Below are positions 3,483-24,997 of a DNA stretch of 64,000 nt, piece after piece. Location of the stretch: positions 88,721 through 152,720 of the forward strand of contig CBDESZ010000031.1 in NCBI GenBank assembly GCA_965242725.1, read 5' to 3'. How positions within the stretch are numbered: the first letter of the stretch is position 1; each line of letters starts with the position of its first letter. Position numbers and translations under genes: made by a program. The stretch comes from Alkalispirochaeta sp. GTDB taxonomy: Bacteria; Spirochaetota; Spirochaetia; DSM-27196; Alkalispirochaetaceae. The notes beneath the pieces were generated by a model. It ran no database searches. It saw only the letters and a list, made by a program, of their open reading frames with translations, and was not told the DNA's origin.

Positions 3483-3484
3483 GA

Positions 3485-4447: not shown

Positions 4448-4459
4448 GCGCTGCCGTCG

Positions 4460-4489: not shown

Positions 4490-4510
4490 ACATTCCATCA
4501 AAATATGGTT

Positions 4511-4558
4511 TGCAAAATGATGCAAACGATTGCAAAATGCTCGTTGTCGTAGTAGGAT
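4511..4558 (+). promoter_or_regulatory. Sigma70-type promoter (TTGCAA-N17-TAGGAT) overlapped by LacI operator TGCAAACGATTGCA
   Basis: Near-perfect palindrome at 4521-4534; -35 at 4530-4535 and -10 at 4553-4558. Confidence 0.7.
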
Positions 4559-4578
4559 GACCTGAAAAGGAGAATCCA

Positions 4579-5475: not shown

Positions 5476-5485
5476 TAAGGGGTGA

Positions 5486-7354
5486 ATGATGGAAACGATG
5501 AGACTGACCGCGGGACAGGCACTGGTGAAGTTTCTTGATAATCAATACCTGCAGGTAGATGATCGGGAAATCAAGTTTGTCGAGGGTATATTTGGTATCT
5601 TTGGTCATGGCGTCGTCGTCGGCCTCGGGGAGGCGATCCAGGAGCCGAACCACAACCTGACCTTTTACCAGGGGCGAAACGAACAGGGCATGGCTCACGC
5701 TGCGATGGCGTACGCCAAGCAGAACAATCGACATAAAATCATCGCCGTCACAAGTTCCATCGGACCGGGAGCGCTGAACATGGTTACCGCCGCGGGAACG
5801 GCCACTTCCAACAGGATTCCGCTGCTCCTGTTGCCTGGAGATGCATTTGCGTGTCGGCAACCGGACCCGGTTCTTCAGCAAATAGAACAGAGTTATGACT
5901 ATACCGTCACGGCCAACGATGCCTTCAAAGCGGTAAGCAAGTATTGGGATCGTATCGCCCGACCGGAACAACTCATGACTGCAGCGATAAATGCGATGCG
6001 CGTCCTGACGGACCCGGCGGAGACGGGTGCAGTCGTACTGGCCCTGCCTCAGGACGTACAGGGCGAAGCGTTTGATTATCCTGCCGATTTCTTTGCACGG
6101 CGGGTCCATCGCTTTTCCCGTCGGCCGCTCGCATCGGGTGAGGCGGAGGCGATTGCAGCCGTCATCGCCGGAAAAAAACGACCCATGATAATCTGTGGAG
6201 GCGGTGTTCGGTATTCAGAGGCGGGCAATGCGCTGGCTTCTTTTGCAGAGGAATTTGGGATTCCCATCGGAGAAACTCAGGCCGGCAAGGGTGCTGTACG
6301 GTGGGACCACCCCCAGAATCTCGGCGGCCTTGGTGTAACGGGGACACTCGCCGCCAATCGGATTGCCCGTGAGGCAGATCTCATTCTCGCGGTAGGAACT
6401 CGTCTCAACGATTTTCACACCGCCAGCAAATCGGCGTTCCAGGCCCCGGGGGTTCAAATCGTAACGATCAATGTAAATGCTTTTGACGCATACAAGATGA
6501 ACGCGGCCCCGTATATCGCCGATGCCCGTACCGCCTTGGAAGAGCTTGCGCCCGTTCTGCGAAGGAAAAAGTATGTTGCCTCCTACGGTGGTGACGTCGG
6601 CAAAGCCAAGGCAGCATGGAATGCCGAAGTCGATCGGCTTTTTGCCCTCGACGATACCGACGGGCTTACCCAGACACGGGTCATTGGAATGCTCGGCGAC
6701 TTCATGAGTGAAGAAGATGTCATCGTTTCGGCATCCGGAAGTTTGCCGAGCGACCTTGAACGCCTGTGGCGTCCTGTTTCGCCGGACAATTACCATCTTG
6801 AGTATGGTTTTTCCTGTATGGGATACGAGGTGCCGGGGGCCTTGGGCGCAAAGCTCGCCGTGGGAAAGGATCGTGAAGTATATACCCTCGTCGGAGACGG
6901 CGGATTCCTGATGCTCCATTCGGAACTGATCAGTGCCCTGCAGGAACAGCAGAAGATCACTATCGTTCTTGTTGACAATATGGGATTTCATTGTATCGAT
7001 AATCTACAGGGCTCAAAAGGAATACCTCATTTTGGGTGTGAATTTCGCTACCGGGATGAAACATCCAATACACTCAGCGGCGACGATATCGCGATTGACT
7101 ATGCAATGGTCGCCAAAGGGTACGGATGCGACTCATTTTCCGCGCGCACTGCAAAGGAGCTCAAAGACGCGTTACATGAGGCGCGTAAAAGCATCCGTCC
7201 AGTTCTGATCGACGTAAAGACGGTAAAAAAATCGATGACCGACGGATACGAAGCGTGGTGGCGCGTCGGAATCCCTGAGGTTTCCAATAAAAAAGAGGTA
7301 GTAGAGGCGTACGAGGAGCAGCAGGAGATGCTCAAGAAGGTAAGGCTCTACTGA
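5486..7354 (+). CDS. iolD: 3D-(3,5/4)-trihydroxycyclohexane-1,2-dione acylhydrolase (copy 1)
   Basis: GIFGHG, RQPDPVLQQ, YHLEYGFSCMGYE, VGDGGFLM ThDP motif, WWRVG. Confidence 0.95.
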   Translation: MMETMRLTAGQALVKFLDNQYLQVDDREIKFVEGIFGIFGHGVVVGLGEAIQEPNHNLTFYQGRNEQGMAHAAMAYAKQNNRHKIIAVTSSIGPGALNMVTAAGTATSNRIPLLLLPGDAFACRQPDPVLQQIEQSYDYTVTANDAFKAVSKYWDRIARPEQLMTAAINAMRVLTDPAETGAVVLALPQDVQGEAFDYPADFFARRVHRFSRRPLASGEAEAIAAVIAGKKRPMIICGGGVRYSEAGNALASFAEEFGIPIGETQAGKGAVRWDHPQNLGGLGVTGTLAANRIAREADLILAVGTRLNDFHTASKSAFQAPGVQIVTINVNAFDAYKMNAAPYIADARTALEELAPVLRRKKYVASYGGDVGKAKAAWNAEVDRLFALDDTDGLTQTRVIGMLGDFMSEEDVIVSASGSLPSDLERLWRPVSPDNYHLEYGFSCMGYEVPGALGAKLAVGKDREVYTLVGDGGFLMLHSELISALQEQQKITIVLVDNMGFHCIDNLQGSKGIPHFGCEFRYRDETSNTLSGDDIAIDYAMVAKGYGCDSFSARTAKELKDALHEARKSIRPVLIDVKTVKKSMTDGYEAWWRVGIPEVSNKKEVVEAYEEQQEMLKKVRLY

Positions 7355-7355
7355 G

Positions 7356-8372
7356 ATGGCCTCATTTCCGCTGGCCGTTCCGTCCGGGCGGACACGCGAC
7401 TGTGTCACCTTTGGAAGGGCCAACATGGACCTCTATACCCAGAGTGGTCGCTCCATAGAGGAAACGCCGGTATTTGCCAAATCGGTCGGCGGTACTCCTG
7501 CGAATATCGCCGCGGCGATGGCGCGTCTCGGCATGAAAGTGGGTATGATTACCCGCGCCGCCGCCGATCCCATCGGCCGTTTTGTCGTTGAGTCGCTGCA
7601 GCGGCTGGGTGTCGATACGTCGCACATCGTCTTTGATCACAGCGGCGCCCGCACGAGCATCGCCTTTGCCGAGACGCGGAGCGCCGGTTCAAATACGGTT
7701 CTCTACCGGAATAACGCGGCCGATCTTCTCGTTAACCCGACGGACATTGATGCAGAGTATATCCGGTCAACGGCGATGCTCCTCCTTTCCGGTACGGCGT
7801 TATCTGAGTCCCCGTCGCGGGACGCAGCGATGCTCGCGGTAGGCATTGCCCGGAAAGCCGGAACGCTTATTGCACTGGATATTGACTTCAGACCCTACTC
7901 GTGGCGCAACCGCGAGTCGGCGTCGGTTGCCCTCATGTTTGCGGCGGAATCCTGCGACATCGTGATCGGTACCAGGGAGGAGTTTGACGTACTGGAACTG
8001 GTCTACGGAAATGACGCTATCGCCGACAGAGACCGGGACGCCTTAACCGCGCGGCGCCTGATTGAGGCCGGAAACTCCGTCGTCGTCGTGAAACGGGGAG
8101 AGGATGGATCCACCGCATACACTGCAACGGGCAGGACGGTACAAGGACCGGTGTTTCCCGTCGTCCCGGCAAAGGTGTACGGAGCCGGAGACGCCTTTGC
8201 AGGCGCGTTGCTCGCACGTCTCCTAGTTGGTGCTGAACTCGACGAGGCTTTGACGGCGGGAGCGGCAAACGCTTCAATAAATATTTCCAGAACCCGGTGC
8301 GCCGAAGATATGGCCACATGGGAAGAACTTGTACAATTCATCAAGGAGAAGAACTATGCCGTATCACATTAG
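7356..8372 (+). CDS. iolC: 5-dehydro-2-deoxygluconokinase (PfkB family)
   Basis: GRANMDLY, GGTPANIA, YRNNAAD, LDIDFRP, GAGDAF. Confidence 0.9.
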   Translation: MASFPLAVPSGRTRDCVTFGRANMDLYTQSGRSIEETPVFAKSVGGTPANIAAAMARLGMKVGMITRAAADPIGRFVVESLQRLGVDTSHIVFDHSGARTSIAFAETRSAGSNTVLYRNNAADLLVNPTDIDAEYIRSTAMLLLSGTALSESPSRDAAMLAVGIARKAGTLIALDIDFRPYSWRNRESASVALMFAAESCDIVIGTREEFDVLELVYGNDAIADRDRDALTARRLIEAGNSVVVVKRGEDGSTAYTATGRTVQGPVFPVVPAKVYGAGDAFAGALLARLLVGAELDEALTAGAANASINISRTRCAEDMATWEELVQFIKEKNYAVSH

Positions 8373-9201
8373 GCCTTATAACAATGAGAACAGGCCGGTT
8401 ATCGATGTAGACAACAACTGGACGCCCCTGATCTATTTCAACGACATACGTCTTGCTTCGGGTATGTCCTATTCCCATCGCCTGGAAGAACACGAGTCTG
8501 TCTGTGTGGTTGTATCGGGTACGGTACATATAGAGGTTGAAGGCGTCAGATTTGAAAGTGTGGGAAAGAGGGAACATCTCTGGGCCGGCAAGCCTGATTC
8601 GGTATATGTACCGCCCGGGTTCAAAGCGACAATCACCGCGGCGGGTGACGGCGCCGAGGTCTTCGTTGCCGGCGGGCAAACGGGAGGTGGCAAAGAACCA
8701 TTTCGGGTTACACCTGATGATGTCGATACCGTCCAATATGGAAGCGACGACACCAAGACGCACCGTCGTATTTACCACATCCTCGGAAAAAACGTTGAAG
8801 GGCACACGGGGAACCTTCTTGTAAGTGAGCTTTTTACCGTCGGAGCGGGAGGGTGGTCGGGATTTCCGCCGCACAAGCATCACATCGAACGACCGCCGGT
8901 GGAAAGCGATTTTGAGGAGGCATTTCACTACCGCTTTAACCCTGATCACGGATTCGGTGCGCAGTTTGCGTATATCGGCGATGACGATTTCGGGCCTGTA
9001 TACCATGTAAAACACGGGAGTACCATTCTGCTTGATAAGAGTTACCATCCCTCCGTTGCAGCGCCGGGCTATGAGATGTACTACTTTACGATCCTTGCGG
9101 GACGTAACCGACGCTCCCTGATTCAATATTTCCACCCCGATCATGAGTACCAGGTCCATACCATCCCGGGGCTCAAAGACATGATCGCAAAGTTCAAGTA
9201 G
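8356..9201 (+). CDS. iolB: 5-deoxy-glucuronate isomerase (copy 1)
   Basis: KduI/IolB cupin: WSGFPPHKH, EEAFHYRF, YHPSVAAPGY; start set at ATG 8356 after RBS. Confidence 0.85.
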   Translation: MPYHIRPYNNENRPVIDVDNNWTPLIYFNDIRLASGMSYSHRLEEHESVCVVVSGTVHIEVEGVRFESVGKREHLWAGKPDSVYVPPGFKATITAAGDGAEVFVAGGQTGGGKEPFRVTPDDVDTVQYGSDDTKTHRRIYHILGKNVEGHTGNLLVSELFTVGAGGWSGFPPHKHHIERPPVESDFEEAFHYRFNPDHGFGAQFAYIGDDDFGPVYHVKHGSTILLDKSYHPSVAAPGYEMYYFTILAGRNRRSLIQYFHPDHEYQVHTIPGLKDMIAKFK

Positions 9202-9217
9202 TAAAGGAGACAACGAT

Positions 9218-10231
9218 ATGCAGGAAGTCAGACTCGGAATCGTCGGCCTCGGTCGACTGGGCAAACGGCACGCGGAAAACCTGCGTTATCGCGTACCGGG
9301 AGCACAACTCGTTGCGGCGTGTAGCGTCGTACCTGATGAACTCGATTGGGCGAGAACCAAACTGGGTGTGAAAAAGACTTACGATTCCTACGACGAAATG
9401 CTCGGCGACGATGAGGTTGATGCGGTCTTTCTCGTCTCTACCTCGAGCGTCCATGCAGAGCAGATTATGGCGGGACTCGCGGCGGGAAAACACGTTTTTT
9501 CGGAAAAACCGATGGGCGTCACTATCGAGGAGTGCCTCGAAGTGGAACGGGCCGTCGCCTCGGCTCCCGAGCTCCATTTCCAGCTCGGTTTTGTCCGCCG
9601 CTTTGATCCGAGCCTCGCATACGCCAAGCAAAAGATTGACGAGGGCGCTATCGGTGAACCCTTCCTCGTTCGGGCCCAAACGGTCGATACAGATGAATTT
9701 GCTGAGTTTCAGATAAAATTTGTACCCACATCGGGCGGAATCTTCATGGACATGAACTCCCACGACATCGATCTTGCGCGCTGGTTCATCGGGGCGGAAA
9801 TAAAGAGCGTCTACGCGATTGGCGGGAGCTATGTGCATCGAGGTTTTGCAGAGGTGAACGACGCGGACAACACCGTTGCGCTCTGCCGGTTTGAAGACGG
9901 GAAGATGGCCGTCATTTCGGCGAGCCGTACCGCGTTTCACGGCCACGATACGCACACCGAGATAACCGGTTCCAAAGGAATTCTCAAGATCGGTATGACC
10001 CCTTCAAAAAATCGCGTGGAAATATTTGATACTGAAGGCGCGCGTGTCGAGTGCGTCCAGGACTTTTTTGAACGATTTCACGAGGGGTTCCTTCTGGAAG
10101 CGCAGAGTTTTGTAAGCGGAATCATGAACGGAGTCAAGCCCTCGATTTTTGCGACCGACGGGACAAAGGCGACGGAAGTGGGGTTTGCCCTGACAAAATC
10201 ATTCAAGGAGAACAGGGTCGTCGAATTGTGA
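9218..10231 (+). CDS. Gfo/Idh/MocA inositol dehydrogenase (IolG/IolX-like)
   Basis: GLGRLG, VFSEKP, GFVRRFDP, SGGIFMDMNSHDID. Confidence 0.88.
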   Translation: MQEVRLGIVGLGRLGKRHAENLRYRVPGAQLVAACSVVPDELDWARTKLGVKKTYDSYDEMLGDDEVDAVFLVSTSSVHAEQIMAGLAAGKHVFSEKPMGVTIEECLEVERAVASAPELHFQLGFVRRFDPSLAYAKQKIDEGAIGEPFLVRAQTVDTDEFAEFQIKFVPTSGGIFMDMNSHDIDLARWFIGAEIKSVYAIGGSYVHRGFAEVNDADNTVALCRFEDGKMAVISASRTAFHGHDTHTEITGSKGILKIGMTPSKNRVEIFDTEGARVECVQDFFERFHEGFLLEAQSFVSGIMNGVKPSIFATDGTKATEVGFALTKSFKENRVVEL

Positions 10232-11259
10232 CACTGAAAGATATTGCACAACTCGCAGGAACCAGTGTTGCCACCGTATCGCGCAGTCTGAATGACAGCC
10301 ATCTTGTCGCGGATGAGACGAGGCGAAGAATCAAGGCAATAGCGGCAGAACATGGCTTCGAGTTCAATGCAAGTGCCCGCGGCCTCGTTACGAGAACGAC
10401 CGGTACGATCGGCGTTATTCTCCCTGAGAACTACGACCGATTTGATGTATTGCTCTACCATGCGGCGCTGCATAACGATTTCCGGATGAGTCTGGAACGG
10501 GCAGATAAGGATATGATTGTCGCGTTTCTGACGAATCGTTTCAGCGGGCTTCGGAACGTTGAAAAACTCGTTATGCGCAAGAAAGTAGACGGGCTGATTA
10601 TCGTTCAGTCGGCCATTGATCAGGAGACGGTGCGGTATCTCAGGCGACGGAACGTACCGTTCGTCATGACCCAGTATCCTCCCGCCGAACCGGATCCGGA
10701 CTACGACGTGGTCTATTCCGACAACTGGACGGGGGGCAAGCTGGTTGCCGACCACTTTATTGAACGAGGCTTTTCCTCATGTGCATGTATCACCGGCGGT
10801 GACGAGGCGCAGTCACGGCAGCGTCTCGCCGGCTTTCTGGACACCATGTCCGCCCACGGAATCACCGTTCCCGATGACCTGATTCTGACCGGAGACTTTC
10901 AGAGCGATACGGCGGTACGTCTGGTCAGAGAACATCTCGACAAACTACAGGGAGTTGAGGCACTTTTTGCGGTCAATGATCTTATGGCGTTTGGCGCGAT
11001 GCAGATACTGCAGGCGTCGGGGCGGCGCGTACCCGACGACATCGCCGTCGTCGGGTATGACGATACGCCCCTCGCGGAAATCACGTTACCCGGTCTTACC
11101 TCTGTTCACCAGTCCCGGGAGGAGATCGCGTTACTCGCGTGTCAGCTCCTCCTTGAGCGCGTCGAGGAGTATGTGGACGAACCTGCCCGGTATCACGAGC
11201 ACCGGGCGATTGCGATCCAGCCGCGCCTGATCGTCCGGGAAAGCTCGCACGGACGATAA
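10228..11259 (+). CDS. LacI-family transcriptional regulator
   Basis: TLKDIAQLAGTSVATVSRSLN HTH; VPDDIAVVGYDD; LIVRESS C-terminus. Confidence 0.95.
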   Translation: MTLKDIAQLAGTSVATVSRSLNDSHLVADETRRRIKAIAAEHGFEFNASARGLVTRTTGTIGVILPENYDRFDVLLYHAALHNDFRMSLERADKDMIVAFLTNRFSGLRNVEKLVMRKKVDGLIIVQSAIDQETVRYLRRRNVPFVMTQYPPAEPDPDYDVVYSDNWTGGKLVADHFIERGFSSCACITGGDEAQSRQRLAGFLDTMSAHGITVPDDLILTGDFQSDTAVRLVREHLDKLQGVEALFAVNDLMAFGAMQILQASGRRVPDDIAVVGYDDTPLAEITLPGLTSVHQSREEIALLACQLLLERVEEYVDEPARYHEHRAIAIQPRLIVRESSHGR

Positions 11260-11296: not shown

Positions 11297-12286
11297 TCAT
11301 AGATTTGCCTCCGACAGGGCGGCCAGACCGGATGCGGTTAATCCGTTCTCCTTGAGGAGGAATGCGTGGTCGCCCAGTTTCTGGAACTTGTCGCCCAGAC
11401 TTGCCATGACCTGTCGGGGTGCATTGGAGAAACCCGCCTTGTACTCGGCGACTGCGCTGCCGAGTCCACCTATGGGTGAGTGCTCCTCAACCGTTACAAC
11501 GAGCCTGTTTTCCGCAAATACGGAATCGAGCATGTCGGTATCCAGAGGTTTTACCGTGTGCATATCGATTACACGTGTCGAAATACCCCTGGACTCAAGG
11601 ATCTCCGCCGCGCCGACGGATTCAGACAGGAGAGAGCCGCAGGAGATCAACGCGACATCGGTACCCTTTCGGTATTCGATAGCTCTTCCTATTTGAAAAT
11701 CAAAATCGTCCTGGTACATCACCGGAAAGCCGGGTCCTCCGGTCAGTCGGATATATACCGGTCCATCGTGATCGGCGGCGGCACGTAACGCTTTGTGAAC
11801 CGTCAGCGGATCAGACGGCGCAATGACGGTAAAGTTGGGAATTGCCCGGGTCACAGCTATGTCATCCATCGCATAGTGTGTATTGCCAAGAGGGCCGAAG
11901 CGGACACCCGCCTCAATCGAGACAACTGTGGCTTTCAGATTCATATAGGCGAGGGTGTCCCGCATCTGCTCGGCAGTGCGCATAGGCACGATCGCCGCGA
12001 GGGCAACGGCAAACGGCAGTATTCCCTCGACGGCGAGGCCCGCGGAAAAATCGATAAGGTTTTGCTCTGCGATACCGACGTCAAAAAACCGATCAGGATA
12101 GGTGTCTCTGAATCCGGTGAGTCTGGCGGTAGGGGTGAGGTCGGCCGTTACGGTGACCATTTCCGGCCGTTCAGCGGCGAGCATCACCAGGGTGTCGCCC
12201 AATACATTTCGATGGCCCAGGCGGGACCACTCCTGCAGTTGTTCTGCAGACACCTTTGTCATAGCAGCTTCTCGGCCGTCATTCAT
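11297..12286 (-). CDS. Split transketolase, C-terminal (pyrimidine-binding) subunit
   Basis: DVGIAEQN, GPVYIRL, VKPLD, VEEH; non-canonical GPLGNTHY in place of GEDGPTHQ. Confidence 0.92.
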   Translation of the reverse strand: MNDGREAAMTKVSAEQLQEWSRLGHRNVLGDTLVMLAAERPEMVTVTADLTPTARLTGFRDTYPDRFFDVGIAEQNLIDFSAGLAVEGILPFAVALAAIVPMRTAEQMRDTLAYMNLKATVVSIEAGVRFGPLGNTHYAMDDIAVTRAIPNFTVIAPSDPLTVHKALRAAADHDGPVYIRLTGGPGFPVMYQDDFDFQIGRAIEYRKGTDVALISCGSLLSESVGAAEILESRGISTRVIDMHTVKPLDTDMLDSVFAENRLVVTVEEHSPIGGLGSAVAEYKAGFSNAPRQVMASLGDKFQKLGDHAFLLKENGLTASGLAALSEANL

Positions 12287-13115
12287 CGTTGAGCTCCTTC
12301 ATCGCCGTCTCGTAAAATTCTTTTGGTAATGATCGGGCATGCCATTCCAGGCTGTCCTCCATAAAGGAGATTCCTTTACCTTTTGTGGTGTCGGCGATAA
12401 TCACACGGGGTTTTTCACTTACTGCGTCTCTCATTTTCCTGAGAGCATCGATAACGTCGGACACCGAGTTTCCATGGCGTACTACCAGAACATCCCAACC
12501 GGCTGCGCCCCAGAGCGCCTCGATATCGATGTTCATGATTTCCTTTGTCTTACCGGCCAGTTGAACACCATTGCGGTCAACGATCGCTACCAGGTTGTTC
12601 AGCTCATTCTTTGCGGCGTTCATCGCCGACTCCCAGACGAGGCCCTCGTTGCATTCTCCGTCGCCGACAAGACAAAAGATGTTGTGCGTTTCACCTTTCA
12701 TCTTCGCCGCTTTTGCCATTCCGCAGGCGACGGAAAATCCGTGTCCCAGAGATCCGGAGGAGATTTCGATACCGTATTGCACGTTGCGGCTCGGGTGTCC
12801 TGATAGAAAACTGCCGTCGGCCTTAAAGGTGTACATTTGCTCCCTGGTGATATATCCGCTTTCCACCAGTGCGCTGTAGTAGGAAAGACATGCGTGTCCT
12901 TTGCTTTGGACAAACCGATCCCGTTGCGGCCACCGGGGATTCCCGGGATCGTGGTTCATAATGCCAAAAAAAAGTCCGGCTACAATCTCAATACTGGAGA
13001 GGGCGGGTCCAAAATGGGCTCCCCGGTCGCCGGCGACGTAGCCCATTTCAATGACGTTCCGACGCATCTTCCGTGTAATGTCTTCAATCCGTGTAATCGT
13101 CGCTTGATCGACCAT
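12279..13115 (-). CDS. Split transketolase, N-terminal (ThDP-binding) subunit
   Basis: HFGPALS, RDRFVQSKGHA, SGSLGHG, GDGECNEG, KGKG..ME...WH. Confidence 0.93.
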   Translation of the reverse strand: MVDQATITRIEDITRKMRRNVIEMGYVAGDRGAHFGPALSSIEIVAGLFFGIMNHDPGNPRWPQRDRFVQSKGHACLSYYSALVESGYITREQMYTFKADGSFLSGHPSRNVQYGIEISSGSLGHGFSVACGMAKAAKMKGETHNIFCLVGDGECNEGLVWESAMNAAKNELNNLVAIVDRNGVQLAGKTKEIMNIDIEALWGAAGWDVLVVRHGNSVSDVIDALRKMRDAVSEKPRVIIADTTKGKGISFMEDSLEWHARSLPKEFYETAMKELNDE

Positions 13116-13137
13116 TATATGATTCTCCTTGTTTCGT

Positions 13138-14028
13138 TTATCTTTGTTCCGCAATGGTGTAGAGATGCCCGCTGTAACGTCCCATTGGTATCACTCTGGC
13201 TTGTTCCCGGGCGAGTTCAATCAACCGGGGGACAGCCACCCCTGTGGTGTAGCCCATTTCCGACAACATGAATGCGAGGTCTTCTGTCGCCAGGTTTCCC
13301 GACGCACCTGGCGCAAAGGGACATCCTCCCAGCCCGCCTAATGTGGACTGGACCTTTCGGACGCCCCGTTCAATTGCGGCGAGGGTATTGACCATTCCCA
13401 TGTTGCGGGTGTCGTGAATATGAATCTGGAGATCCAATGACGGGTACTCCGCCTGGAGTGCGTCGATCGTTTCTCGCACCTGGGCGGGGTTTGCGATGCC
13501 GATCGTGTCGCAGAGCGTTACCGACGTGATCCCGCTTTGCACGTACGGCTTAAGAAAGGGTATGACGTCTTCAGGACCCTTTTTCCCTTCAAAGGGACAA
13601 CCGAATGAGGTCGCCAGGTCGAGTCCGACCTCGAGATCGGGGAGGGTGTCCCGTATCCCCGACAGTTCCGCGAAGGATTCCCCATGGAATCGCCGGGTAT
13701 TGGCGCGATTATGACTTTCACTGACGGATACGACAAAGGAAACCCATCTCATGCCCGAATCCCACGCCGCCTGTGCTCCCCGCAAGTTGGGAACCAGGGC
13801 AAACAGGTCGGCATCGGGATATTTTTCGATACATCTTTCCGTCAGCTCCCGGGCGTCTTTCATCTGGGGAACGGCCCTGGGGCTCACAAAGGAGGTGATT
13901 TGAAGATGTTTCAATCCGGAGGCGATCAGCCCGTCGATTATGCGAAGCTTGGTTTCCAGTGGAATGTATTCATCAACGTTCTGGAATCCGTCGCGGGGTC
14001 CGACTTCATAGAGTTCGACCGTCTTCAT
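13138..14028 (-). CDS. Hydroxymethylglutaryl-CoA lyase family protein (DRE-TIM)
   Basis: EVGPRDGFQN, HIHDTRNMG, GLGGCPFAPGASGNLATED. Confidence 0.93.
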   Translation of the reverse strand: MKTVELYEVGPRDGFQNVDEYIPLETKLRIIDGLIASGLKHLQITSFVSPRAVPQMKDARELTERCIEKYPDADLFALVPNLRGAQAAWDSGMRWVSFVVSVSESHNRANTRRFHGESFAELSGIRDTLPDLEVGLDLATSFGCPFEGKKGPEDVIPFLKPYVQSGITSVTLCDTIGIANPAQVRETIDALQAEYPSLDLQIHIHDTRNMGMVNTLAAIERGVRKVQSTLGGLGGCPFAPGASGNLATEDLAFMLSEMGYTTGVAVPRLIELAREQARVIPMGRYSGHLYTIAEQR

Positions 14029-15490
14029 TCCGTTTCTCCATCATCGATCCACTCTCCTTGAGTCTCCGGTACCAGGCAAAGGCTTCTTCCGGAAGCTGTG
14101 GGTGGTGGCCGCCACAGTGTCGGCGGGCATTCTGAAGGTACGACGACAATTGATCGCGGTACGAGTCGGAAGCACATCGTGCAATAATCGCGTCCGATCG
14201 CTCGTGGTCATCCAGGCCGCGCAGATCCGCCACGCCATTCTCGGTTACGACGATATCGACGTCGTGCTCACCGATATCCTGGTGGGATACCATGGGCACG
14301 ATATTGGAAATCGCACCGCCTTTTGCCGTGGAGGGAATGAGAATTACCGAGAGAGCTGCGTTCCGGGCAAAGCCCGCTCCGCCGCCGATGCCGTTCACCA
14401 CCCGGCTGCCGGCGATATGACTCGAGTTTACGTTCCCATAGATATCAATTTCGATACCGGTATTAAGGGCAACCACGCCGAGGCGACCGACGACCTCCGC
14501 ACTGTTGGTGATATCGCCATTGCGAATTACAAGGTGGTTGTGAATTTCCGGTATGTCCCGGAGGATTTCTTCAACCCGTTCGCTCATTCCCAGCCCACCG
14601 GTAGAAAGGGCGGTTGCCTTTCCCGACGCCAGAAGTTCCATAACCGGCTCAGTAATTCCGCCACAGAAAAATTGCAGGTCATGGAACGCCGATTGACGGA
14701 AGGCATCGACAACGGAATCGGCGATACTCCCGAAACCGGTCTGAATCGGCGGAAGGGTATTGCCGAGATTCCGGTATTCTCCTTCCAGGAAGGTGAAGAG
14801 ATGATCGGCGATACGCTTTGTGAGGGAAGTACCCTTCGGGGGCGTTCCCAGGCGTTCCGGTATGTTGGTTTCCACGACATGGGAAATCCGGTTCCAATCA
14901 ACCGGAATTCCACCGCTGCCGATGCGCTCATTGACTCGGGTAAGAGGAATCGGCCTGGTGTACGGCGGTGCCAGGGGAATGTACACGTCATGTAACGATT
15001 TGAGCTTCTTCGGCTGTGCCGCATTTATTTCGACGATAATCTCATCCGCCGCCGCGGTGAGGTAGTGCGTCATGCCGACGGAGCTGGTCGGGATCAGGTT
15101 GTTCTCGTCGTCAAAGCCCAGGGCTTCGACGACGGCGATATCTATTCTGCCGAAGTTGCCGTCCCGGAGCATTCGCGGCATGTTACACATCTGCTGCTCC
15201 ACGTACCGCACCGATCCTCTGTTTGTCTGAGACGCCAGTGTCTTGTCGGCGACCATCGGCGTCCGTCGTGCGATAATTTCCGCCGCGGCGAGTTTTTCAT
15301 CGAGCCAGGGTACGTTGGCACCGGTAAGGAGATTGATAGACAGCTCTTCTCCCCCCTTTTTTCGTGCCGTCAGTTCCTCCACAACTGCTTTTGGATAACC
15401 GGCCATGGCGTAACCACTCATCGCGACGGTCATTCCGCTTCGGATGGTTGCGACGGCCTCCTGTGCGGTCGAAATATCTATATTCCTCAT
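14006..15490 (-). CDS. Acetyl-CoA hydrolase/transferase family CoA-transferase (succinate CoA-transferase-like)
   Basis: AGYPKAV, EIDIYGNVNSSH, NGIGGGAGFARNA, IVPMVSH, VVTENGVADLRGL, GHHPQ. Confidence 0.9.
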   Translation of the reverse strand: MRNIDISTAQEAVATIRSGMTVAMSGYAMAGYPKAVVEELTARKKGGEELSINLLTGANVPWLDEKLAAAEIIARRTPMVADKTLASQTNRGSVRYVEQQMCNMPRMLRDGNFGRIDIAVVEALGFDDENNLIPTSSVGMTHYLTAAADEIIVEINAAQPKKLKSLHDVYIPLAPPYTRPIPLTRVNERIGSGGIPVDWNRISHVVETNIPERLGTPPKGTSLTKRIADHLFTFLEGEYRNLGNTLPPIQTGFGSIADSVVDAFRQSAFHDLQFFCGGITEPVMELLASGKATALSTGGLGMSERVEEILRDIPEIHNHLVIRNGDITNSAEVVGRLGVVALNTGIEIDIYGNVNSSHIAGSRVVNGIGGGAGFARNAALSVILIPSTAKGGAISNIVPMVSHQDIGEHDVDIVVTENGVADLRGLDDHERSDAIIARCASDSYRDQLSSYLQNARRHCGGHHPQLPEEAFAWYRRLKESGSMMEKRNEDGRTL

Positions 15491-15510
15491 GGGTACCCTT
15501 GGACGATTTC

Positions 15511-16923
15511 TCACGACCGCGGCGTGAACCCGGAGAACAGCTCTTCATCCGATGGTTCGTGGTTGGGTATTTCCCGGATGACCCATGTATTGTTCATGTA
15601 ATGTTTGAGAGCAATGTTCTCCGACGCGATGTTTCCGCCCCAGGTGCCGCAACCAAGGGAACTGGTAAAGGGCATTCCGCTGACCCAACTCCCCGTATTG
15701 GTCGCGCCCTGGGGCAGGTTCACGACGACACGAGTGGTATAGGTTCTTTCTGCGACTTTCGTCACGTTCTCCGTGGTATTGGAAAATATTCCGCACGAGT
15801 GGCCGGCCCCTGAAGAGGCGTGATTCTCGTTTATTATTCGTATTGCATCGTCGATTCCCGTGCTTTTGTAGACAGTCGTGACGAGACTCATTTTTTCTCC
15901 GGCAAACGGAGTTGAATCGCCGGTAACGTCCTCTTCGACCAGCAGAAACGATGTCCCTTCGGGAACGTCAATACCTGCAATTTCCGCGATATTCCTGACC
16001 GACGATGCGACGATATCGCGATTTATGACGCGACTATCAGGCCACTCGGGCCAGATTGCCTTTTTCAGTTTTTCTTTTTCATCCGAATTCAGGAGGTGGG
16101 CGCCGACCTTTTTAAACTCACCGAGCATGTCGGTGTACACTGATTCGTCGATGACGACGCTGTTATCGCATGAACAACCGGCGGCGAGGTCAAATGTCTT
16201 GCTGATCTTGATCTTGGCCGCAGCATCTGCGAGGTCCGCCGTCCGGTCAACCACGATGACGGAATTGCCGGCACCGACTCCGAATGCGGGTGTGCCTGAG
16301 CTGTAGGCGGCACGGACCATCTGGGCACCGCCCGTCGCCATAACCAAATCACACTGTTTCATGAGTTCGCCGGTTATCGGGACCGAAGGTTCTTTGATGG
16401 TTATGAACAGATCTTCCGGAGCGTCATACTTTTTCATCACGCCTCGAATGAGGTCAACGGTCTTGGTGGCGGTACCTTTGCTTCGCGGATGCGGTGAGAA
16501 GATTATGGCATCACGGGCCTTTACGGCAAATATCGCCTGTATGAGAGGATGCATCTCCGCCTGGGTACTTGGAACAAGTGAACCTATCACTCCCACCGGT
16601 TTTGTCAGTCTGACGAGTCCGCGCTCGGGTATCTCTTCTACAATGCCGACCGTCCTGACGTTCTTCACATCGTAAAAGACGCCGCGACATTTCACGGAGA
16701 CCTTGGTGAATTTTGACTGAACGTCACCGAGCCGACACTCCTCATAGGAGTACTCGGCAAGCTCCCTGACCAAGTTATCGTTGGCCGCAATTTCCCAGGT
16801 GATGGCTGCGGCAAGTTCATCCACCTTTGCCTGTGAGAATGTTTCAGCAATACGTTGCGCCTTCCGTGCCCGTTTCATCAACGCCGATACTATTGCCGCA
16901 GCGTCTGCTCGGTTTTGTTCCAT
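15511..16923 (-). CDS. CoA-acylating aldehyde dehydrogenase (ALDH-1)
   Basis: PVGVIGSLVPST, ATGG, GVGAGN, SKTFD...C, GEKMS, GHSCG, LGCGTWGGN. Confidence 0.9.
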   Translation of the reverse strand: MEQNRADAAAIVSALMKRARKAQRIAETFSQAKVDELAAAITWEIAANDNLVRELAEYSYEECRLGDVQSKFTKVSVKCRGVFYDVKNVRTVGIVEEIPERGLVRLTKPVGVIGSLVPSTQAEMHPLIQAIFAVKARDAIIFSPHPRSKGTATKTVDLIRGVMKKYDAPEDLFITIKEPSVPITGELMKQCDLVMATGGAQMVRAAYSSGTPAFGVGAGNSVIVVDRTADLADAAAKIKISKTFDLAAGCSCDNSVVIDESVYTDMLGEFKKVGAHLLNSDEKEKLKKAIWPEWPDSRVINRDIVASSVRNIAEIAGIDVPEGTSFLLVEEDVTGDSTPFAGEKMSLVTTVYKSTGIDDAIRIINENHASSGAGHSCGIFSNTTENVTKVAERTYTTRVVVNLPQGATNTGSWVSGMPFTSSLGCGTWGGNIASENIALKHYMNNTWVIREIPNHEPSDEELFSGFTPRS

Positions 16924-17012
16924 TTCTGCCTCCAACTTCCGTAAAGTACGAATTATGAAATTTCGTTCGAAGCGATATAGGCATCATATAGCTTTCTATC
17001 GGAATAGTAAAG

Positions 17013-17031: not shown

Positions 17032-17067
17032 GAAGAATATTAGGTTATGTTGTATCGTGTATATGCT

Positions 17068-17838
17068 ATGAAAGCTCAATCGATGAACCGGGTCGAAGAG
17101 ATCAGGACCCTTTTAAAGAGAAACGGTAAGGTCTATGTCGCGGACCTGAGCGCAGAGTTGGGTGTGAGCGAAGTATCAATACGGAAGTATCTGTCCAGAA
17201 TTGAACGGGAAGGGTTTGCAACACGATTTTATGGGGGTGCGGCGCTGAAAGATCCCGCTCCCGCAAACAACGCCTTGCAGGAAATCTACGATGATCCAAT
17301 TCGAACGGCCCTTGCCCGGGCAGCACGTAACCATGTTGTAGACGGTGATTCCATATTTGTCGGTTCCGGTAGGTCGTGTTGCGCCCTGGCCCACGAGCTG
17401 ACCGGGTTTACCGACCTGACCGTATTCACAAACAATATTACTGCCCTTCCGGAGCTTATTACCAACGCCTCACGGGTATATCTGATCGGCGGGGAAGTCA
17501 CCAGCACCGACAATCATACTTTGTTTTCGAGCTGGGAGTCGCCGCACGCACAAATGGAAAATATCTTCGTAAACAAGGCGTTTACAAGTGTGTCCGGAAT
17601 TGACCTGAAAGCGGGACTGACCGTTGATTCCGTTATCAGCACCCGTATTTTCAAACAGATACCCACGATGGCGCATCGCTGGTATTTGATTGCCGATGTA
17701 AAAAAGTTTGACAAGATTTCGATTTATCCCGTCGCGGAGCTCGAACAAATACACACATTAATCACCGACACACTCCCGGACCACTATGCAGAAAGACTTC
17801 GTGCGATTCGCGTCGAAATCGTTCAAAGTCCACGGTAG
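17068..17838 (+). CDS. DeoR/GlpR-family transcriptional regulator
   Basis: VADLSAELGVSEVSIRKYL HTH, YGGA, IFVGSG, VFTNN, KKFDK. Confidence 0.93.
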   Translation: MKAQSMNRVEEIRTLLKRNGKVYVADLSAELGVSEVSIRKYLSRIEREGFATRFYGGAALKDPAPANNALQEIYDDPIRTALARAARNHVVDGDSIFVGSGRSCCALAHELTGFTDLTVFTNNITALPELITNASRVYLIGGEVTSTDNHTLFSSWESPHAQMENIFVNKAFTSVSGIDLKAGLTVDSVISTRIFKQIPTMAHRWYLIADVKKFDKISIYPVAELEQIHTLITDTLPDHYAERLRAIRVEIVQSPR

Positions 17839-20911: not shown

Positions 20912-20947
20912 AAAGGCGTCGCACCTGTATCAGGTTACGACGCCTTT
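20912..20947. terminator. Probable bidirectional terminator
   Basis: AAAGGCGTCG-ACCTG...CAGGT-CGACGCCTTT hairpin between convergent genes. Confidence 0.75.
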
Positions 20948-20974: not shown

Positions 20975-22357
20975 TCACTTTCCGTACGTTTCCCAATGTT
21001 TCCCGAATATTTTGTTTTCGTCGGGGATTACCGGAGGTATTGGTTTTGAAACCCACGTTACATTACGGAAGTGCCAGTACGATATGTTCTCTGAGGTGAT
21101 ATTTCCTCCCCATGAACCACATCCAAGGGTGAGTGAAAAGGGCATACCGTTGTCGTAGTTGCCGCTATTGGCCGCACTTTGGGCCTGGCGTACCATGATA
21201 CGGCTCACCGGAGCTTTCATTGCGAGTTCTTCCACTCGATCGTCCCTGGTTGTGTGAATACCGCATGAATGGCCGTAGCCGGAAAACCCGGTGATGTCCT
21301 TGACGTACTGGATCGCCTTTTGAAAACCGCTGTACTTCCAGAGGGTCATCACGACCGAAAGTTTCTCACCGGCAAAAAGCTCGTCTGGACCTACTTCTGA
21401 TGCCTCCACCATGATAAACCGTGTTTCGGGCGGCACGGAAAATCCGGCAAGTTCCGCAATTTTGGGCGCCGGTTGCGCAACGATCGCCCTGTTGAGCGCG
21501 TGCCCGTCTGGCCACATGGTGCGTTTCAGTTTTTCTTTTTCCTCGGGGCTGCAGAGATATCCATTGAGCTTCCGGAACTCCTCGAGCATTGTATCGTAAA
21601 TGGTCGATTCTATGACGACCGAATTTTCGCTGGAGCAGCTCGTGGCGTTGTCAAAGGTTTTACCCAGAAAAATTTTCTTTGCGGCATCTTCCAGGTCCGC
21701 CGTTTCATCGACAATAACCGTGGCGTTACCCGCGCCGACGCCATAGGCTGGTGTACCGCTGGAATAGGCCGCCTTGACCATACCGGGGCCGCCGGTGGCG
21801 ACTACGAGGTCAACGGCCGCCATCAATTCCTGGGTCAGTTGCACTGAGGGTTCCTCAATCCACTGTACCAGGTCTTCCGGGCCACCCATTTTTCTGATAC
21901 CGTCCCGGAGTTTCTGCGCTGCGAGACCGGAACAACCCTTACCGCTCGGATGCGGCGCAAAAATCACGGCATTTCGGTTTTTAAGGATCGACAGTCCGTT
22001 ACAACCAACTGATGAAGTGGGATTTGTGACCGGAATGAGCGCACCGACGACACCAACGGGCTTGATTACCTTCATGAGTCCCTTTTCGGGGATTTCCTCA
22101 AGAATACCGACAGACTTTACGCCGTCGAGATCCCGCAGTGTTCCGAGAATTTTCTTCTGATGCTTGAGCAGTTTATCTTCGTATACGCCGAGCTTTGTCT
22201 CTTTATGGGCGAGGGTTGCACATTCAACGGCGCTCTCCTTTTTGTAGACTTCCCAACCCGCTGCCGCAACGAGCTCGTCGATTTGTTCCTGCGACCAGGA
22301 ATCCACTATTTTCTGGGCCGCCCGGGCGCGGGCCAGTTTTTCCTGAATGATACTCAT
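20975..22357 (-). CDS. CoA-acylating aldehyde dehydrogenase, SauS (sulfoacetaldehyde dehydrogenase)-like (ALDH-2)
   Basis: PVTNP, GVGAGN, KTFDNATSCSSENS, GEKLS, DNGMPFSLTLGCGSWGGN. Confidence 0.9.
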   Translation of the reverse strand: MSIIQEKLARARAAQKIVDSWSQEQIDELVAAAGWEVYKKESAVECATLAHKETKLGVYEDKLLKHQKKILGTLRDLDGVKSVGILEEIPEKGLMKVIKPVGVVGALIPVTNPTSSVGCNGLSILKNRNAVIFAPHPSGKGCSGLAAQKLRDGIRKMGGPEDLVQWIEEPSVQLTQELMAAVDLVVATGGPGMVKAAYSSGTPAYGVGAGNATVIVDETADLEDAAKKIFLGKTFDNATSCSSENSVVIESTIYDTMLEEFRKLNGYLCSPEEKEKLKRTMWPDGHALNRAIVAQPAPKIAELAGFSVPPETRFIMVEASEVGPDELFAGEKLSVVMTLWKYSGFQKAIQYVKDITGFSGYGHSCGIHTTRDDRVEELAMKAPVSRIMVRQAQSAANSGNYDNGMPFSLTLGCGSWGGNITSENISYWHFRNVTWVSKPIPPVIPDENKIFGKHWETYGK

Positions 22358-22441
22358 GTTCATACTCCTCAATAACACGCGCGCGACCGGCTGCCGATGG
22401 CGACAAATCGCGAGCGTTCATAATCCTATTGCGTTATCCGG

Positions 22442-23530
22442 TTATTTGTCCGGATTTGGAACCATAAGGTCACGGATGATACGGCAGAGTTCGTCGTACC
22501 CGCCGATGAACTGTCTGAGCGTACGCGCCGTTGCACCATACGAGTCAAATTCTTCCGGTTTCATACCGTCCGGTTCATATGCCCGTCGGAAGTCGACAAA
22601 CTTCTTAGAGAGTTCTTTCACGATCGCCGGGTCAACCGGAGTGTGAATCCGGTCCCTGCGGTCCTTTACGGTCACATCGGATTCGTTAAACCGTTTTGCC
22701 CATTTGTACGGGATTGTACAAACGACGTCACCACCGATGAACTCTGACCAGTGATAGTGGTTGCGATATGCAGCCGCCAATAGACGTGTGCGATATCCGC
22801 GCTCTTCATATATCCGGTACGCGTTCTTGAACACCGCAACACCCGCCCACTCCAGGTAGTCCGCGTTGGTGATAATATTTTCCTTATTGGCAATTACTTT
22901 CAGCCAATCGTCCGTGCGTCCGACCATAATTGTACACACCGGCGCCATCGTTGAGATGTCGTGTCCGTCCGCTTCTCGGCGCGTTAATCCCCGTTCCACC
23001 GCTTCGGCGACGGCAATCGCCTGAGGCGCGGTAAATGACACCGTCGCGTTTACGCTCACTCCGTAATACGTTGCCTCTTCGATAGCTTTTACACCCGCCT
23101 CGGTGACCGGCATTTTCACGTTGAGATTAGGGATGACCTCGGCAAAATGGAGAGCCTGTTTTACCATTGCGTCGGCGTCACGGTAAAACTTGGCGTTGGT
23201 TTGCATGGAAAGTCGGCCTTTTTTGCCGTTTGTTGCCTTGAATGTCGGCTCCAGGAGCTTTGCCGCTTTCACGGCCATCTCGTCTATCAACTTCCAGGCA
23301 ATGTCGTCTTCCGTTGCGGTGGGCATTTCCGTGATAAGATCCCGGATTCTGCCCTCCCAGGCGGCGTAGTCTTTTTGAAGCACATTTACCACAATCACGG
23401 GATTGGTCGTAGCCCCTACCGCGCCATGTTCAATTCCATATTCCAGTTCGGAAATAGAACTGGAATCATTCCAATAATCGGTCGGTGTGGTCTCGCTCAT
23501 CTCGTGCAGCGGACTTTTAAAGTCGCCCAT
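22442..23530 (-). CDS. Transaldolase-family protein (WNDS-type)
   Basis: YWNDS, GATTNP, NVKMPVT (Schiff-base Lys), VNATVSF, MVGR. Confidence 0.88.
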   Translation of the reverse strand: MGDFKSPLHEMSETTPTDYWNDSSSISELEYGIEHGAVGATTNPVIVVNVLQKDYAAWEGRIRDLITEMPTATEDDIAWKLIDEMAVKAAKLLEPTFKATNGKKGRLSMQTNAKFYRDADAMVKQALHFAEVIPNLNVKMPVTEAGVKAIEEATYYGVSVNATVSFTAPQAIAVAEAVERGLTRREADGHDISTMAPVCTIMVGRTDDWLKVIANKENIITNADYLEWAGVAVFKNAYRIYEERGYRTRLLAAAYRNHYHWSEFIGGDVVCTIPYKWAKRFNESDVTVKDRRDRIHTPVDPAIVKELSKKFVDFRRAYEPDGMKPEEFDSYGATARTLRQFIGGYDELCRIIRDLMVPNPDK

Positions 23531-23724
23531 AAACTCTCCTCCGTGGTCTGTTTATACACTGAACCGGAACGTCAGTATAAAATTATAAGAAAAACCGTTG
23601 ATCAGACAAAAGAATTATATCATATCGCGTTGGCGTGTCAACAAAATTAGCTGTTGTTCAGTTAATCACATTGTCTGATAATAACAGACCGTTCGAAAAA
23701 ACCAGTCTAAGGTCTCGTTGAGGA

Positions 23725-24420
23725 GTGACGTGCGACAAATCGCGAAGCAGTTCAGCACATGAATTCATACGGGAGCAAGTCTCTTTCGCGGTGGTGAAGA
23801 ACGCGTCAATCAACAACATGACAAGGGAAAGCTCACCGCCCGGGAGCGGTATCACCTCATTTCGGTACGCTACGAAGCAGGAATGTATGGACGGTGTCCG
23901 GCGCCTCCTATCGTATATTCCTTCCTCAAACCAGGAACAACTACCCATTGTGCCCACGGAAGATTCCGTTGATCGAACCACGCCTGAATTGTTGGAAATG
24001 GTACCGGACGAGGAGCGACGCGGTTATGACGTCCGGAATGTAATTGCATCGGTCTTTGATCGTGAGAGCTTCATGGAGGTCCATCGAGACTATGCACCAA
24101 ATGTGGTTATTGGATTTGCCCGTCTGGCAGGCCGAACGTTGGGGATCTTTGCAAATCAACCGAACCTGCTTGCGACTGCGCTGGACATCAACTTCAACGA
24201 TAAAAGCGTCCGTTTTATCCGGTTCTGAGACGCATTCAACGTTCCGATCATTTCCCTTGTCGACGTTCCCGGTTTTCTGCCCGGTATCGGCGGACATTGC
24301 CGTGATGGGTGCCGAAGGTGCTGCCGATATACTCTTTCGGCGGGAAATCGCTGATGCGGAAGATCCGGAAACGACCAGGGCGGAAAAAATACGGGAGTGT
24401 AAAGAGGAGGTGTTGGATAC
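23725..24420 (+). pseudogene. Decayed acyl-CoA carboxyltransferase (MmdA/PccB-like)
   Basis: Fragments GGEERVNQQHDKGKLTARER / VRRLLSYIP...YDVR...GFARLAG...ANQP...RFIRF*DAFNVP..LVDVPGFLPG / IAVMGAEGAADILFR in different frames; two large deletions and a TGA at 24226. Confidence 0.9.
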
Positions 24421-24701: not shown

Positions 24702-24800
24702 ATGATAGGGGGCGGTGTACTTCTGGCCTTTTTAGGGATTGCACGCAAGTATGAACCACTGCTCCTTGTACCTATCGGATCTGGCCCGCTCCCTGCCAGG
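24702..24800 (+). pseudogene. Na+-translocating decarboxylase beta subunit (OadB/MmdB) remnant
   Basis: Manual translation MIGGGVLLAFLGIARKYEPLLLVPIGSG matches the YEPLLLxPIGFG family signature. Confidence 0.8.
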
Positions 24801-24997
24801 CCATATACCTTTCTCCTCGGCGCGGCGTATCGTTATTAGGCCTTTGTCCCGGTCATACAACCACCGATTATCAAGTTGCTGACGACTGCGGAACAGCGAA
24901 AAATCGTCATGGGTGATGTCACCATCATGCGTGGCGGTCACGAAAGTGAAGATCGTACCGGGAGCGAAAAACCACCACGCTCCCGGTGACGCACCGT

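Follow-up and report, generated by a model that had tools for sequence, protein, structure and literature searches.

The 64,000-nucleotide (nt) stretch analysed here (the window) is taken from contig CBDESZ010000031.1 of the Alkalispirochaeta sp. assembly GCA_965242725.1, and at its heart lie two minus-strand genes that are separated by 63 nt and form a two-gene unit (Table 1). The upstream gene encodes a member of the TAL/FSA (transaldolase) family, here TAL, and the downstream gene encodes a CoA-acylating aldehyde dehydrogenase, here ALDH1; the pair converges on iolD2, one of just two iolD genes in the genome, both of which are in the window. An original prediction, made from the window alone, had described such an operon and suggested that it replaces IolJ and IolA of myo-inositol catabolism and leads to malonyl-CoA, and both open reading frames (ORFs) proved to be as described. 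We propose that TAL cleaves 5-dehydro-2-deoxy-D-gluconate (DKG) without the help of a kinase, that ALDH1 would form malonyl-CoA from the malonate semialdehyde released, and that a sodium-pumping decarboxylase would complete the route to acetyl-CoA. Judged from gene content and context, we regard the full scheme as moderately probable, and the kinase-free cleavage of DKG to malonate semialdehyde appears more likely than the malonyl-CoA step.

Table 1. Features of the window discussed in the text (position 1 is the first nucleotide of the window).
Feature	Position	Strand	Remarks
iol cluster 1	228..11259	+	profile matches; also holds three GFO/IolG-like genes, a sugar-phosphate-isomerase-like TIM gene, a fourth GFO gene and a LacI regulator
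iolE	4579-5475	+	iol cluster 1
iolD1	5486-7354	+	iol cluster 1
iolC	7356-8372	+	iol cluster 1; full-length; TIGR04382 333.8 bits (cut-off 300)
iolB1	8329-9201	+	iol cluster 1
ALDH2-CoA-transferase-lyase-TK(N)-TK(C) operon	11297..16935	-	five genes; TK, transketolase
Split transketolase	12279-13154 and 11297-12286	-
HMG-CoA-lyase-like gene	13138-14028	-
ScpC-like CoA-transferase	14006-15514	-
ALDH2	15511-16935	-	second SauS-like aldehyde dehydrogenase; 45% identical to ALDH1
DeoR-family regulator	17047..17838	+	divergent from the ALDH2-TK operon, 5' of iolB2-iolD2
iolB2	17940-18794	+	PF04962 180 bits
iolD2	18816-20723	+	TIGR04377 899 bits (cut-off 715); convergent to TAL-ALDH1
Terminator-like hairpin and T-run	20914..20926	-	weak 5-pair stem; directly 3' of the ALDH1 stop
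ALDH1	20975..22378	-	P0001, 467 aa; SauS/SucD-like, CoA-acylating; proposed malonate-semialdehyde dehydrogenase (to malonyl-CoA)
TAL	22442..23530	-	P0002, 362 aa, Gln/Met type; PF00923 153.7 bits (cut-off 27), residues 20-313; proposed DKG transaldolase
Sigma-70-type promoter-like site	23614..23641	-	TTGACA-16-TATAAT with TG; 12/12 consensus; ~85 nt 5' of the TAL start
Decayed MmdA-type carboxyltransferase (CT) alpha	23790..24418	+	residues ~21-44, 223-371 and 426-469 of 516, in three frames
Decayed OAD_beta (Na+-pump beta) fragments	24702..24920	+	85% identity to the G578 protein over residues 161-193

Promoter-like sites in the region are not more numerous than in shuffled sequence, so that the placement of the consensus site upstream of TAL is only suggestive. 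The ALDH1 frame opens with GTG, and its true start is probably one of the ATG codons 15-21 nt downstream.

How could a transaldolase take over the work of a kinase and an aldolase? DKG, written from C6 as HOCH2-CO-CHOH-CHOH-CH2-COO-, is a ketose with the C3/C4 configuration of fructose and a carboxylate where fructose 6-phosphate has its phosphate, and because both carbinols have the fructose configuration, the FBA-like IolJ is able to cleave DKG phosphate. The chemistry of the TAL/FSA family requires a free hydroxymethyl end of the ketose. In the proposed route, IolG, IolE, IolD2 and IolB2 would produce DKG, the products of iolB2 and iolD2 being the proposed suppliers for TAL. Lys139 of TAL would form a Schiff base at the keto group, cleavage between C3 and C4 would release malonate semialdehyde, and transfer of the bound dihydroxyacetone unit onto glyceraldehyde 3-phosphate would yield fructose 6-phosphate, so that a single enzyme would stand in for IolC and IolJ. 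As its gene context suggests, ALDH1 would use CoA and NAD(P)+ to oxidise malonate semialdehyde and so form malonyl-CoA, and a biotin-dependent, Na+-translocating (methyl)malonyl-CoA decarboxylase would convert this to acetyl-CoA, conserving the energy of decarboxylation that IolA wastes. The canonical lower pathway (IolC, IolJ and IolA/MmsA) breaks the same C3-C4 bond and also takes malonate semialdehyde to acetyl-CoA. Unlike it, the route envisaged here would involve no phosphorylation of DKG, would use Schiff-base transfer in place of metal-dependent aldol cleavage, would return the triose as fructose 6-phosphate and not as dihydroxyacetone phosphate, and would replace IolA with a non-homologous acylating dehydrogenase and a separate decarboxylase. 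The saving would lie in the number of enzymes, one in place of two, and not in ATP, because the phosphofructokinase step must still be paid for to recover the triose; an ATP could be gained only with a pyrophosphate-dependent kinase.

The absence of iolJ and iolA from the window, on which the original prediction had relied, holds: neither gene was found in iol cluster 1, and there was no class II aldolase (PF01116) or methylmalonate-semialdehyde dehydrogenase (MMSDH) among the 55 window ORFs scanned. The prediction had called for a search of the remaining genome, and this gave the same result in an assembly of 4.34 Mb in 34 contigs that is 91.8% complete. Its single PF01116 gene, of the class II fructose-bisphosphate aldolase type, lies on contig C12, remote from the iol genes and in a housekeeping setting (the neighbouring gene is, judged by eye, GHMP-kinase-like), and nothing in the genome exceeds the cut-off of the MMSDH/IolA model TIGR01722 (top score 326.7 versus 448.5 bits). 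Since PF01116 occurs only away from iol genes and MMSDH matches stay below cut-off, the assembled genome is without iolJ and iolA. DUF2090 (PF09863), found in the fused IolC-aldolase, has no match in the genome, and three DeoC-family genes are present outside the window. iol cluster 1 encodes a stand-alone IolC, yet no IolJ-type aldolase to cleave DKG 6-phosphate was found in the genome.

What company does TAL keep in other organisms? At least 588 relatives came up when one genome per species was scanned; the best 80 loci (60-83% identity) were retained and all of their ORFs clustered without prior labels. IolD is present in 37 of the 80 loci and in 31 of the 48 that span at least 15 kb, and at least one of IolD, IolB and IolE is present in 40; GFO/IolG-like genes were counted in 30/80, LacI regulators in 29/80 and IolE in 27/80, these three counts excluding the window. 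Because IolD is found in only 9/201 and 12/201 sampled genomes of two phyla, the arrangement of TAL with IolD is far beyond chance. TAL forms part of iol operons in no fewer than six phyla (Acidobacteriota, Chloroflexota, Bacteroidota, Spirochaetota, Thermodesulfobacteriota and a Bathyarchaeia metagenome-assembled genome, MAG). iolB and iolD flank the gene in an acidobacterium (L052), in the Bathyarchaeia MAG (L059) and in an Anaerolinea (L072), and in a spirochaete (L025) it is the first gene of the operon TAL-GFO-iolB-iolD-iolE-GFO. The iolB2 and iolD2 types of the window are in an operon with TAL in L012, L025 and L038 as well. A cluster of classical aldehyde dehydrogenases, corresponding to IolA/MMSDH, occurs in 25/80 loci, and the four members tested all exceeded the TIGR01722 cut-off (559-706 bits), which supports the predicted malonate semialdehyde as the likely product of the TAL reaction. 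A relative of the window IolC occurs in just two of the 80 loci, and a weak PfkB gene in one more. When the 73 TALs no shorter than 330 aa were tallied on a quick tree, 40 had iol genes in their locus, 11 more had IolA within 3 kb and one had a SauS-like dehydrogenase only, these 52 being scattered across the whole tree; of the others, four had an SDR only, one a Zn-ADH only, and 16 nothing recognised, many of these on short contigs. The window TAL and its closest relatives (L010, L012, L017, L025, L050 and L228-L230) are iol-linked; its identity to the TAL of Alkalispirochaeta americana is 81%.

The prediction that TAL takes the place of IolC and IolJ gains support from the genomes in which the gene is part of an iol operon. 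None of five such genomes, two of them complete chromosomes, encodes an IolC over cut-off (top score 148 versus 300 bits). All five possess a separate TAL-family gene, of the Glu/Phe type in four and of the Gln/Tyr (FSA) type in one, and the iol-linked TAL is therefore an extra, specialised paralog there. Among 201 sampled Acidobacteriota genomes, 12 have IolD: three of these have TAL, three have IolC, none has both and six have neither, the sample being centred on one TAL-bearing genome that is counted among the three. The 201 Spirochaetota genomes sampled are uninformative on TAL/IolC complementarity, IolD and TAL being found together only in the source genome while the other IolD-containing genomes are of the IolC type. 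The prediction had offered, as an alternative, that TAL might act as an aldolase on DKG 6-phosphate; this is disfavoured by the absence of the IolC kinase from the five TAL-iol genomes above and by the need of TAL/FSA chemistry for a free hydroxymethyl end. The six Acidobacteriota with IolD and with neither a Gln/Met TAL nor an IolC over cut-off (G281, G293, G341, G353, G375 and G405) may have a third way of handling DKG, or an IolD-like enzyme with another role.

TAL belongs to the PF00923 family by a wide score (Table 1), and its active site differs from those of transaldolases and of FSA. Residues 20-23 form a 'WNDS' motif, and Asp22, Asn43, Gln110, Lys139, Thr163, Met202, Arg205 and Arg256 are invariant in 74/74 members of the subfamily. 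Direct alignment to the solved transaldolases 3r5e and 3clm places Lys139 at the K of 'IKIPAT', the strand of the Schiff-base lysine, Gln110 at the Glu of the transaldolase 'S-I/L-E-V' and Met202 at the Phe of 'F-F-V/I-S-R'. In place of the Glu/Phe pair of a classical transaldolase (EC 2.2.1.2), all 74 members have Gln110 and Met202, and of the FSA pair, Gln59 and Tyr131, only the Gln is present, with Met202 at the Tyr position. The canonical TALs of four other genomes are Glu/Phe in the same alignment, a Gln/Tyr sequence of the FSA type in G001 served as the positive control for that pattern, and the three patterns separate cleanly. Like FSA and E. coli transaldolase B (TalB), the window TAL has the PF00923 fold and keeps the active-site Lys, Asp, Asn and Thr; unlike them, it lacks both the Tyr of FSA and the Glu of the transaldolases, Gln/Met being a third active-site make-up in the TAL/FSA family. 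In TalB, where we take the corresponding residues to be Glu96, Phe178, Arg181 and Arg228, two arginines bind the distal anion, and both are retained in the Gln/Met TAL, a feature that fits a carboxylate-tailed substrate together with a phosphorylated acceptor. One may speculate that the carboxylate of the substrate itself helps catalysis.

Could TAL instead be an FSA-like aldolase that splits DKG into malonate semialdehyde and free dihydroxyacetone, the latter being phosphorylated or reduced elsewhere? The gene context that points to DKG and malonate semialdehyde applies to such an enzyme equally, and Gln110 occupies the position of FSA Gln59 and not that of the transaldolase Glu. We assigned roles to the donor-pocket residues from a description of FSA (PMC13259622), according to which Lys85 acts with Tyr131 as a proton shuttle and Gln59, Thr109 and Tyr131 hold the catalytic water; it is this Tyr131 that is replaced by Met202 in every one of the 74 members. 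Furthermore, no kinase family recurs among the annotated ORF clusters found in at least four TAL loci, and a Gln/Met paralog beside transketolase in the source genome suggests use as a transferase, so we consider the aldolase unlikely, and continue with TAL as a transaldolase.

The ALDH1 protein belongs to the acylating aldehyde dehydrogenases (the AdhE N-domain/EutE/PduP/SucD group). As the original prediction stated, it contains the SauS-type string KTFDNATSCSSENS. Its top NCBIfam model is SauS (NF047625), at 541.7 bits and so below the cut-off of 600, and the TAL-linked orthologs, at 523-577 bits, also all fall below it. The nearest solved structure is that of SucD, the acylating succinate-semialdehyde dehydrogenase of Clostridium kluyveri (8cei; 336 bits over residues 10-443), in an alignment that pairs 'SCSSENS' with 'ICSSEQS'; the Cys of the CSSE motif is the catalytic residue of acylating aldehyde dehydrogenases. 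SauS and SucD resemble ALDH1 in family, in the Cys-containing motif and in using short aldehydes with an anionic tail. The SucD substrate is an omega-carboxy aldehyde and that of SauS is the sulfo analogue, which favours malonate semialdehyde as the ALDH1 substrate. They differ in that ALDH1 does not reach the SauS cut-off, lies among iol, TAL and decarboxylase genes and not with genes for sulfoacetate or succinate/4-hydroxybutyrate, and has malonate semialdehyde as its proposed substrate.

Sulfo-TAL sulfoglycolysis is the known precedent for a transaldolase that acts on a non-phosphorylated ketose. The sulfofructose transaldolase (SftT/BmSF-TAL, 8bc3) offers a close chemical parallel to what is proposed for the window TAL, in that a fructose analogue with an anionic tail and no phosphate would hand its dihydroxyacetone unit to glyceraldehyde 3-phosphate and a C3 acid-aldehyde would be released, with no need for a sugar kinase. 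With SauS as the best NCBIfam match of ALDH1, the pair could itself be taken for a sulfoquinovose pathway, consisting of a sulfofructose transaldolase and a sulfoacetaldehyde or sulfolactaldehyde dehydrogenase. However, 8bc3 represents another subfamily, of ~220 versus ~360 aa, whose match to the window TAL is confined to 67 residues (E 6.7e-6), too little for orthology, and the active site is Gln/Met for a tail that would be a carboxylate and not a sulfonate. The sub-cut-off SauS score, the pairing of TAL with IolA and iol genes elsewhere, and the absence of any sulfoquinovosidase-like or sulfonate-exporter-like Pfam family from the window scans likewise make this explanation highly improbable.

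A SauS-like dehydrogenase occupies the place of IolA beside TAL in five of the 80 TAL loci (L010, L012, L015, L017 and L089), and is next to TAL also in the metagenome locus L188 and in G125. In the reverse direction, relatives of ALDH1 were matched at E <= 1e-110 in 118 of 301 genomes of the class, and the 20 best full-length places outside the source genome (63-91% identity) were fetched. TAL adjoins the ALDH1 ortholog in four of these (three congeners and G625; L228-L231), and a CT gene does so in three. Among the four loci with annotation, three have an adjacent class-III aminotransferase gene (L237, L239 and L240; 66-67% identity) and the fourth has GntR and CT. An aminotransferase neighbour fits the formation of malonate semialdehyde from beta-alanine; the link is ambiguous because γ-aminobutyrate (GABA) would give succinate semialdehyde. 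Such gene pairs may thus lead from beta-alanine or from GABA to an acyl-CoA.

Is TAL, then, simply a pentose-phosphate transaldolase of the Gln/Met type that happens to lie near sugar genes, with ALDH1 serving another aldehyde such as succinate semialdehyde? SucD as the nearest structure of ALDH1 and the possible GABA transaminases beside its orthologs would agree with this, as would the presence of Gln/Met TALs in IolD-lacking genomes and among housekeeping genes. The source genome has two further TAL-family genes and no Glu-type transaldolase among them. One is a second Gln/Met paralog on contig C11 (43090-44151, L100), and possibly it is this one that is the pentose-phosphate enzyme; the other, on contig C3 (L101), is a divergent 348-aa form with 'TIQQD'. 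Against the simple explanation stand the recurrence of synteny with iolB, iolD, iolE or IolA over at least six phyla, the separate canonical TAL or FSA in genomes with an iol-linked copy, the transketolase-linked paralog of the source genome itself, and the maintenance of the TAL-ALDH1 pairing in 4/20 ALDH1-ortholog loci and in L010, L015, L089 and L188. We consider an ordinary transaldolase decidedly improbable, and favour DKG as the substrate of TAL.

The decarboxylase remnants reported in the original prediction are indeed present upstream of the TAL-ALDH1 pair (Table 1). They are interrupted by stops and frame changes, so that the window contains no intact Na+-decarboxylase, and two biotin-carrier queries gave no match between the CT and OAD_beta fragments. 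In a congener, G578, whose TAL and ALDH1 are 87% and 91% identical to those of the window, an intact operon for CT (516 aa), biotin carrier (247 aa) and OAD_beta (367 aa) is divergent from TAL-ALDH1 (L228). The window fragments match this operon best, in the same order and with 72% amino-acid and 74-78% nucleotide identity, and are its decayed orthologs. Contig C2 of the source genome encodes an intact CT, 76% identical to the G578 CT, and OAD_beta, and it is this copy that would be needed for the decarboxylation step. Similar associations are found in other genomes: a single operon has the gene order ALDH-CT-TAL in L012 and TAL-ALDH-CT in L017, and in Pelolinea (L089) genes for CT, a small ORF, biotin carrier and OAD_beta are divergent from iolB-iolD-TAL-ALDH. 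L089 and G578 thus resemble the MmdABCD-type Na+ decarboxylases in having CT alpha, biotin carrier and the sodium-pump subunit OAD_beta, here beside TAL-ALDH, unlike the window with its pseudogene fragments.

These links between dehydrogenase and decarboxylase favour free malonyl-CoA that would be decarboxylated by a biotin enzyme, and lend support to the predicted second product. The alternative is that ALDH1 is a functional analogue of IolA and yields acetyl-CoA and CO2 directly. ALDH1 does take the position of IolA, no CT was found in the available DNA of L010 and L015, and the adjacent decarboxylase was evidently dispensable in the source genome, having decayed. The repeated ties to an mmdA-type CT or a full Na+-decarboxylase (L012, L017, L089, L228, L242 and L244) are not accounted for in this way, and SucD, SauS and AdhE are generally known to release the acyl-CoA intact; we therefore think direct formation of acetyl-CoA quite unlikely, and retain malonyl-CoA as the probable product of ALDH1.

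A number of observations weigh against the scheme as a whole. The decarboxylase next to the pair is dead in the source genome, and in L012 and L017 CT is the sole decarboxylase subunit beside the dehydrogenase. The source genome retains a full iolC, so that the TAL route is not forced there. With neither of the known acid/base residues, the transaldolase Glu or the FSA Tyr, the competence of the Gln/Met subfamily as transaldolases is in doubt. The aminotransferase-linked ALDH1 orthologs could equally be read as succinate-semialdehyde dehydrogenases. The C11 paralog, 58% identical to TAL, adjoins a transketolase subunit gene; three other TAL-type Spirochaetota genomes have no IolD, two of them with TAL among housekeeping genes; and among five genomes with a TAL+IolA module and no iol gene in the locus, IolD is encoded elsewhere in two and is absent from three. 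Members without IolD and the transketolase-linked paralog mean that the Gln/Met TAL family is broader than inositol catabolism.

Modules of TAL and IolA with an SDR or Zn-ADH (L018, L046, L048, L067, L069, L073, L084 and G408-G410) were found in genomes without IolD, which suggests another ketose source that yields malonate (or methylmalonate) semialdehyde. In L087 and three other loci of the SDR type (ORF cluster 22), a tungsten-type aldehyde:ferredoxin oxidoreductase gene is near the Gln/Met TAL.

The five-gene operon on the other side of iolB2-iolD2 may be a second, transketolase-based branch. Of the 41 metagenome loci (among L134-L209) that span 9 kb or more, 28 share the ALDH2-CoA-transferase-lyase-TK(N)-TK(C) unit, and a divergent DeoR gene often accompanies it. 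It directly follows iolD-iolB and abuts TAL-ALDH1-GntR in L010, and abuts TAL-ALDH1 in L188. The operon may act on DKG or on a KduI-type keto-uronate: DKG may be converted via 3-hydroxy-4-oxobutanoate and malyl-CoA to acetyl-CoA and glyoxylate, or the sequence may begin from the KduI product. We do not choose between the two, since L182 alone among these 41 loci has IolD close to the operon. Relatives of the HMG-CoA-lyase-like gene in the phylum sample are only 34-40% identical, 23 of 24 fall in one family, and they are presumed to be housekeeping HMG-CoA lyases. A bifurcated sulfofructose transketolase/transaldolase pathway is reported for Faecalicatena (PMC11659671). The likeness is in the use of TAL and transketolase modules for one ketose, the TAL pair and the split-transketolase operon flanking iol genes in the window, and the difference is that the window-type transketolase operon is mostly away from IolD in other loci.

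Taken further, the Gln/Met TALs might stand as a third class of catalyst within the transaldolase/FSA superfamily, working without the Glu or Tyr acid/base, perhaps with assistance from the substrate carboxylate, and used widely for the kinase-free cleavage of acid or neutral ketoses. In the spirochaete lineage they could head a bifurcated (transaldolase and transketolase), kinase-free and energy-conserving inositol fermentation in which malonyl-CoA decarboxylation drives a sodium pump. We put this forward tentatively, and as a whole it is more doubtful than not.

Within a literature coverage that did not extend to subscription journals, no paper came to light that connects a transaldolase with DKG, iolD or malonate semialdehyde, nor any on the conversion of inositol to malonyl-CoA or on a Na+-pump decarboxylase in inositol catabolism. 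What is new here is the replacement of IolA by an acylating dehydrogenase tied to a Na+-decarboxylase, the decay of the decarboxylase operon, and the coexistence of the pair with IolC and with the transketolase operon. In Dysosmobacter welbionis, according to PMC13311982, iolJ and iolA are missing and other enzymes were proposed; the word 'transaldolase' is absent from the proteome supplement table of that source, which makes the TAL route no obvious explanation there.

Why would a one-enzyme bypass of IolC and IolJ matter? Myo-inositol, supplied by phytate and plant matter, ranks among the major carbon sources of soils and guts, and the textbook pathway serves to predict which organisms use it. 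If the proposal is correct, the bypass would explain the apparently incomplete iol clusters of Acidobacteriota, Chloroflexota, Bacteroidota, Verrucomicrobiota and Spirochaetota, and such predictions would change. An ending through malonyl-CoA and a Na+ pump would reveal a means by which anaerobes draw additional energy from the C3 half of the molecule. For enzymology, there would be a transaldolase-fold catalyst with neither known acid/base residue, and its acceptance of a carboxylated ketose would be of interest to those who form C-C bonds by biocatalysis.

The remainder of the window contains two further gene groups. A polyol/sugar cluster (24998-37518) encodes a Zn-ADH, two SDRs, a member of the mannitol-dehydrogenase family, an FGGY kinase, an ABC sugar importer, a ROK regulator, a G3P-dehydrogenase-like protein and a TIM-barrel isomerase-like protein. 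Further downstream (41165-51790) is a type I restriction-modification system of HsdM, HsdS and HsdR, in which HsdS and HsdR are separated by a NucS-like nuclease gene and two ORFs that match no Pfam family, and a YgjP-like metallopeptidase gene after the system.

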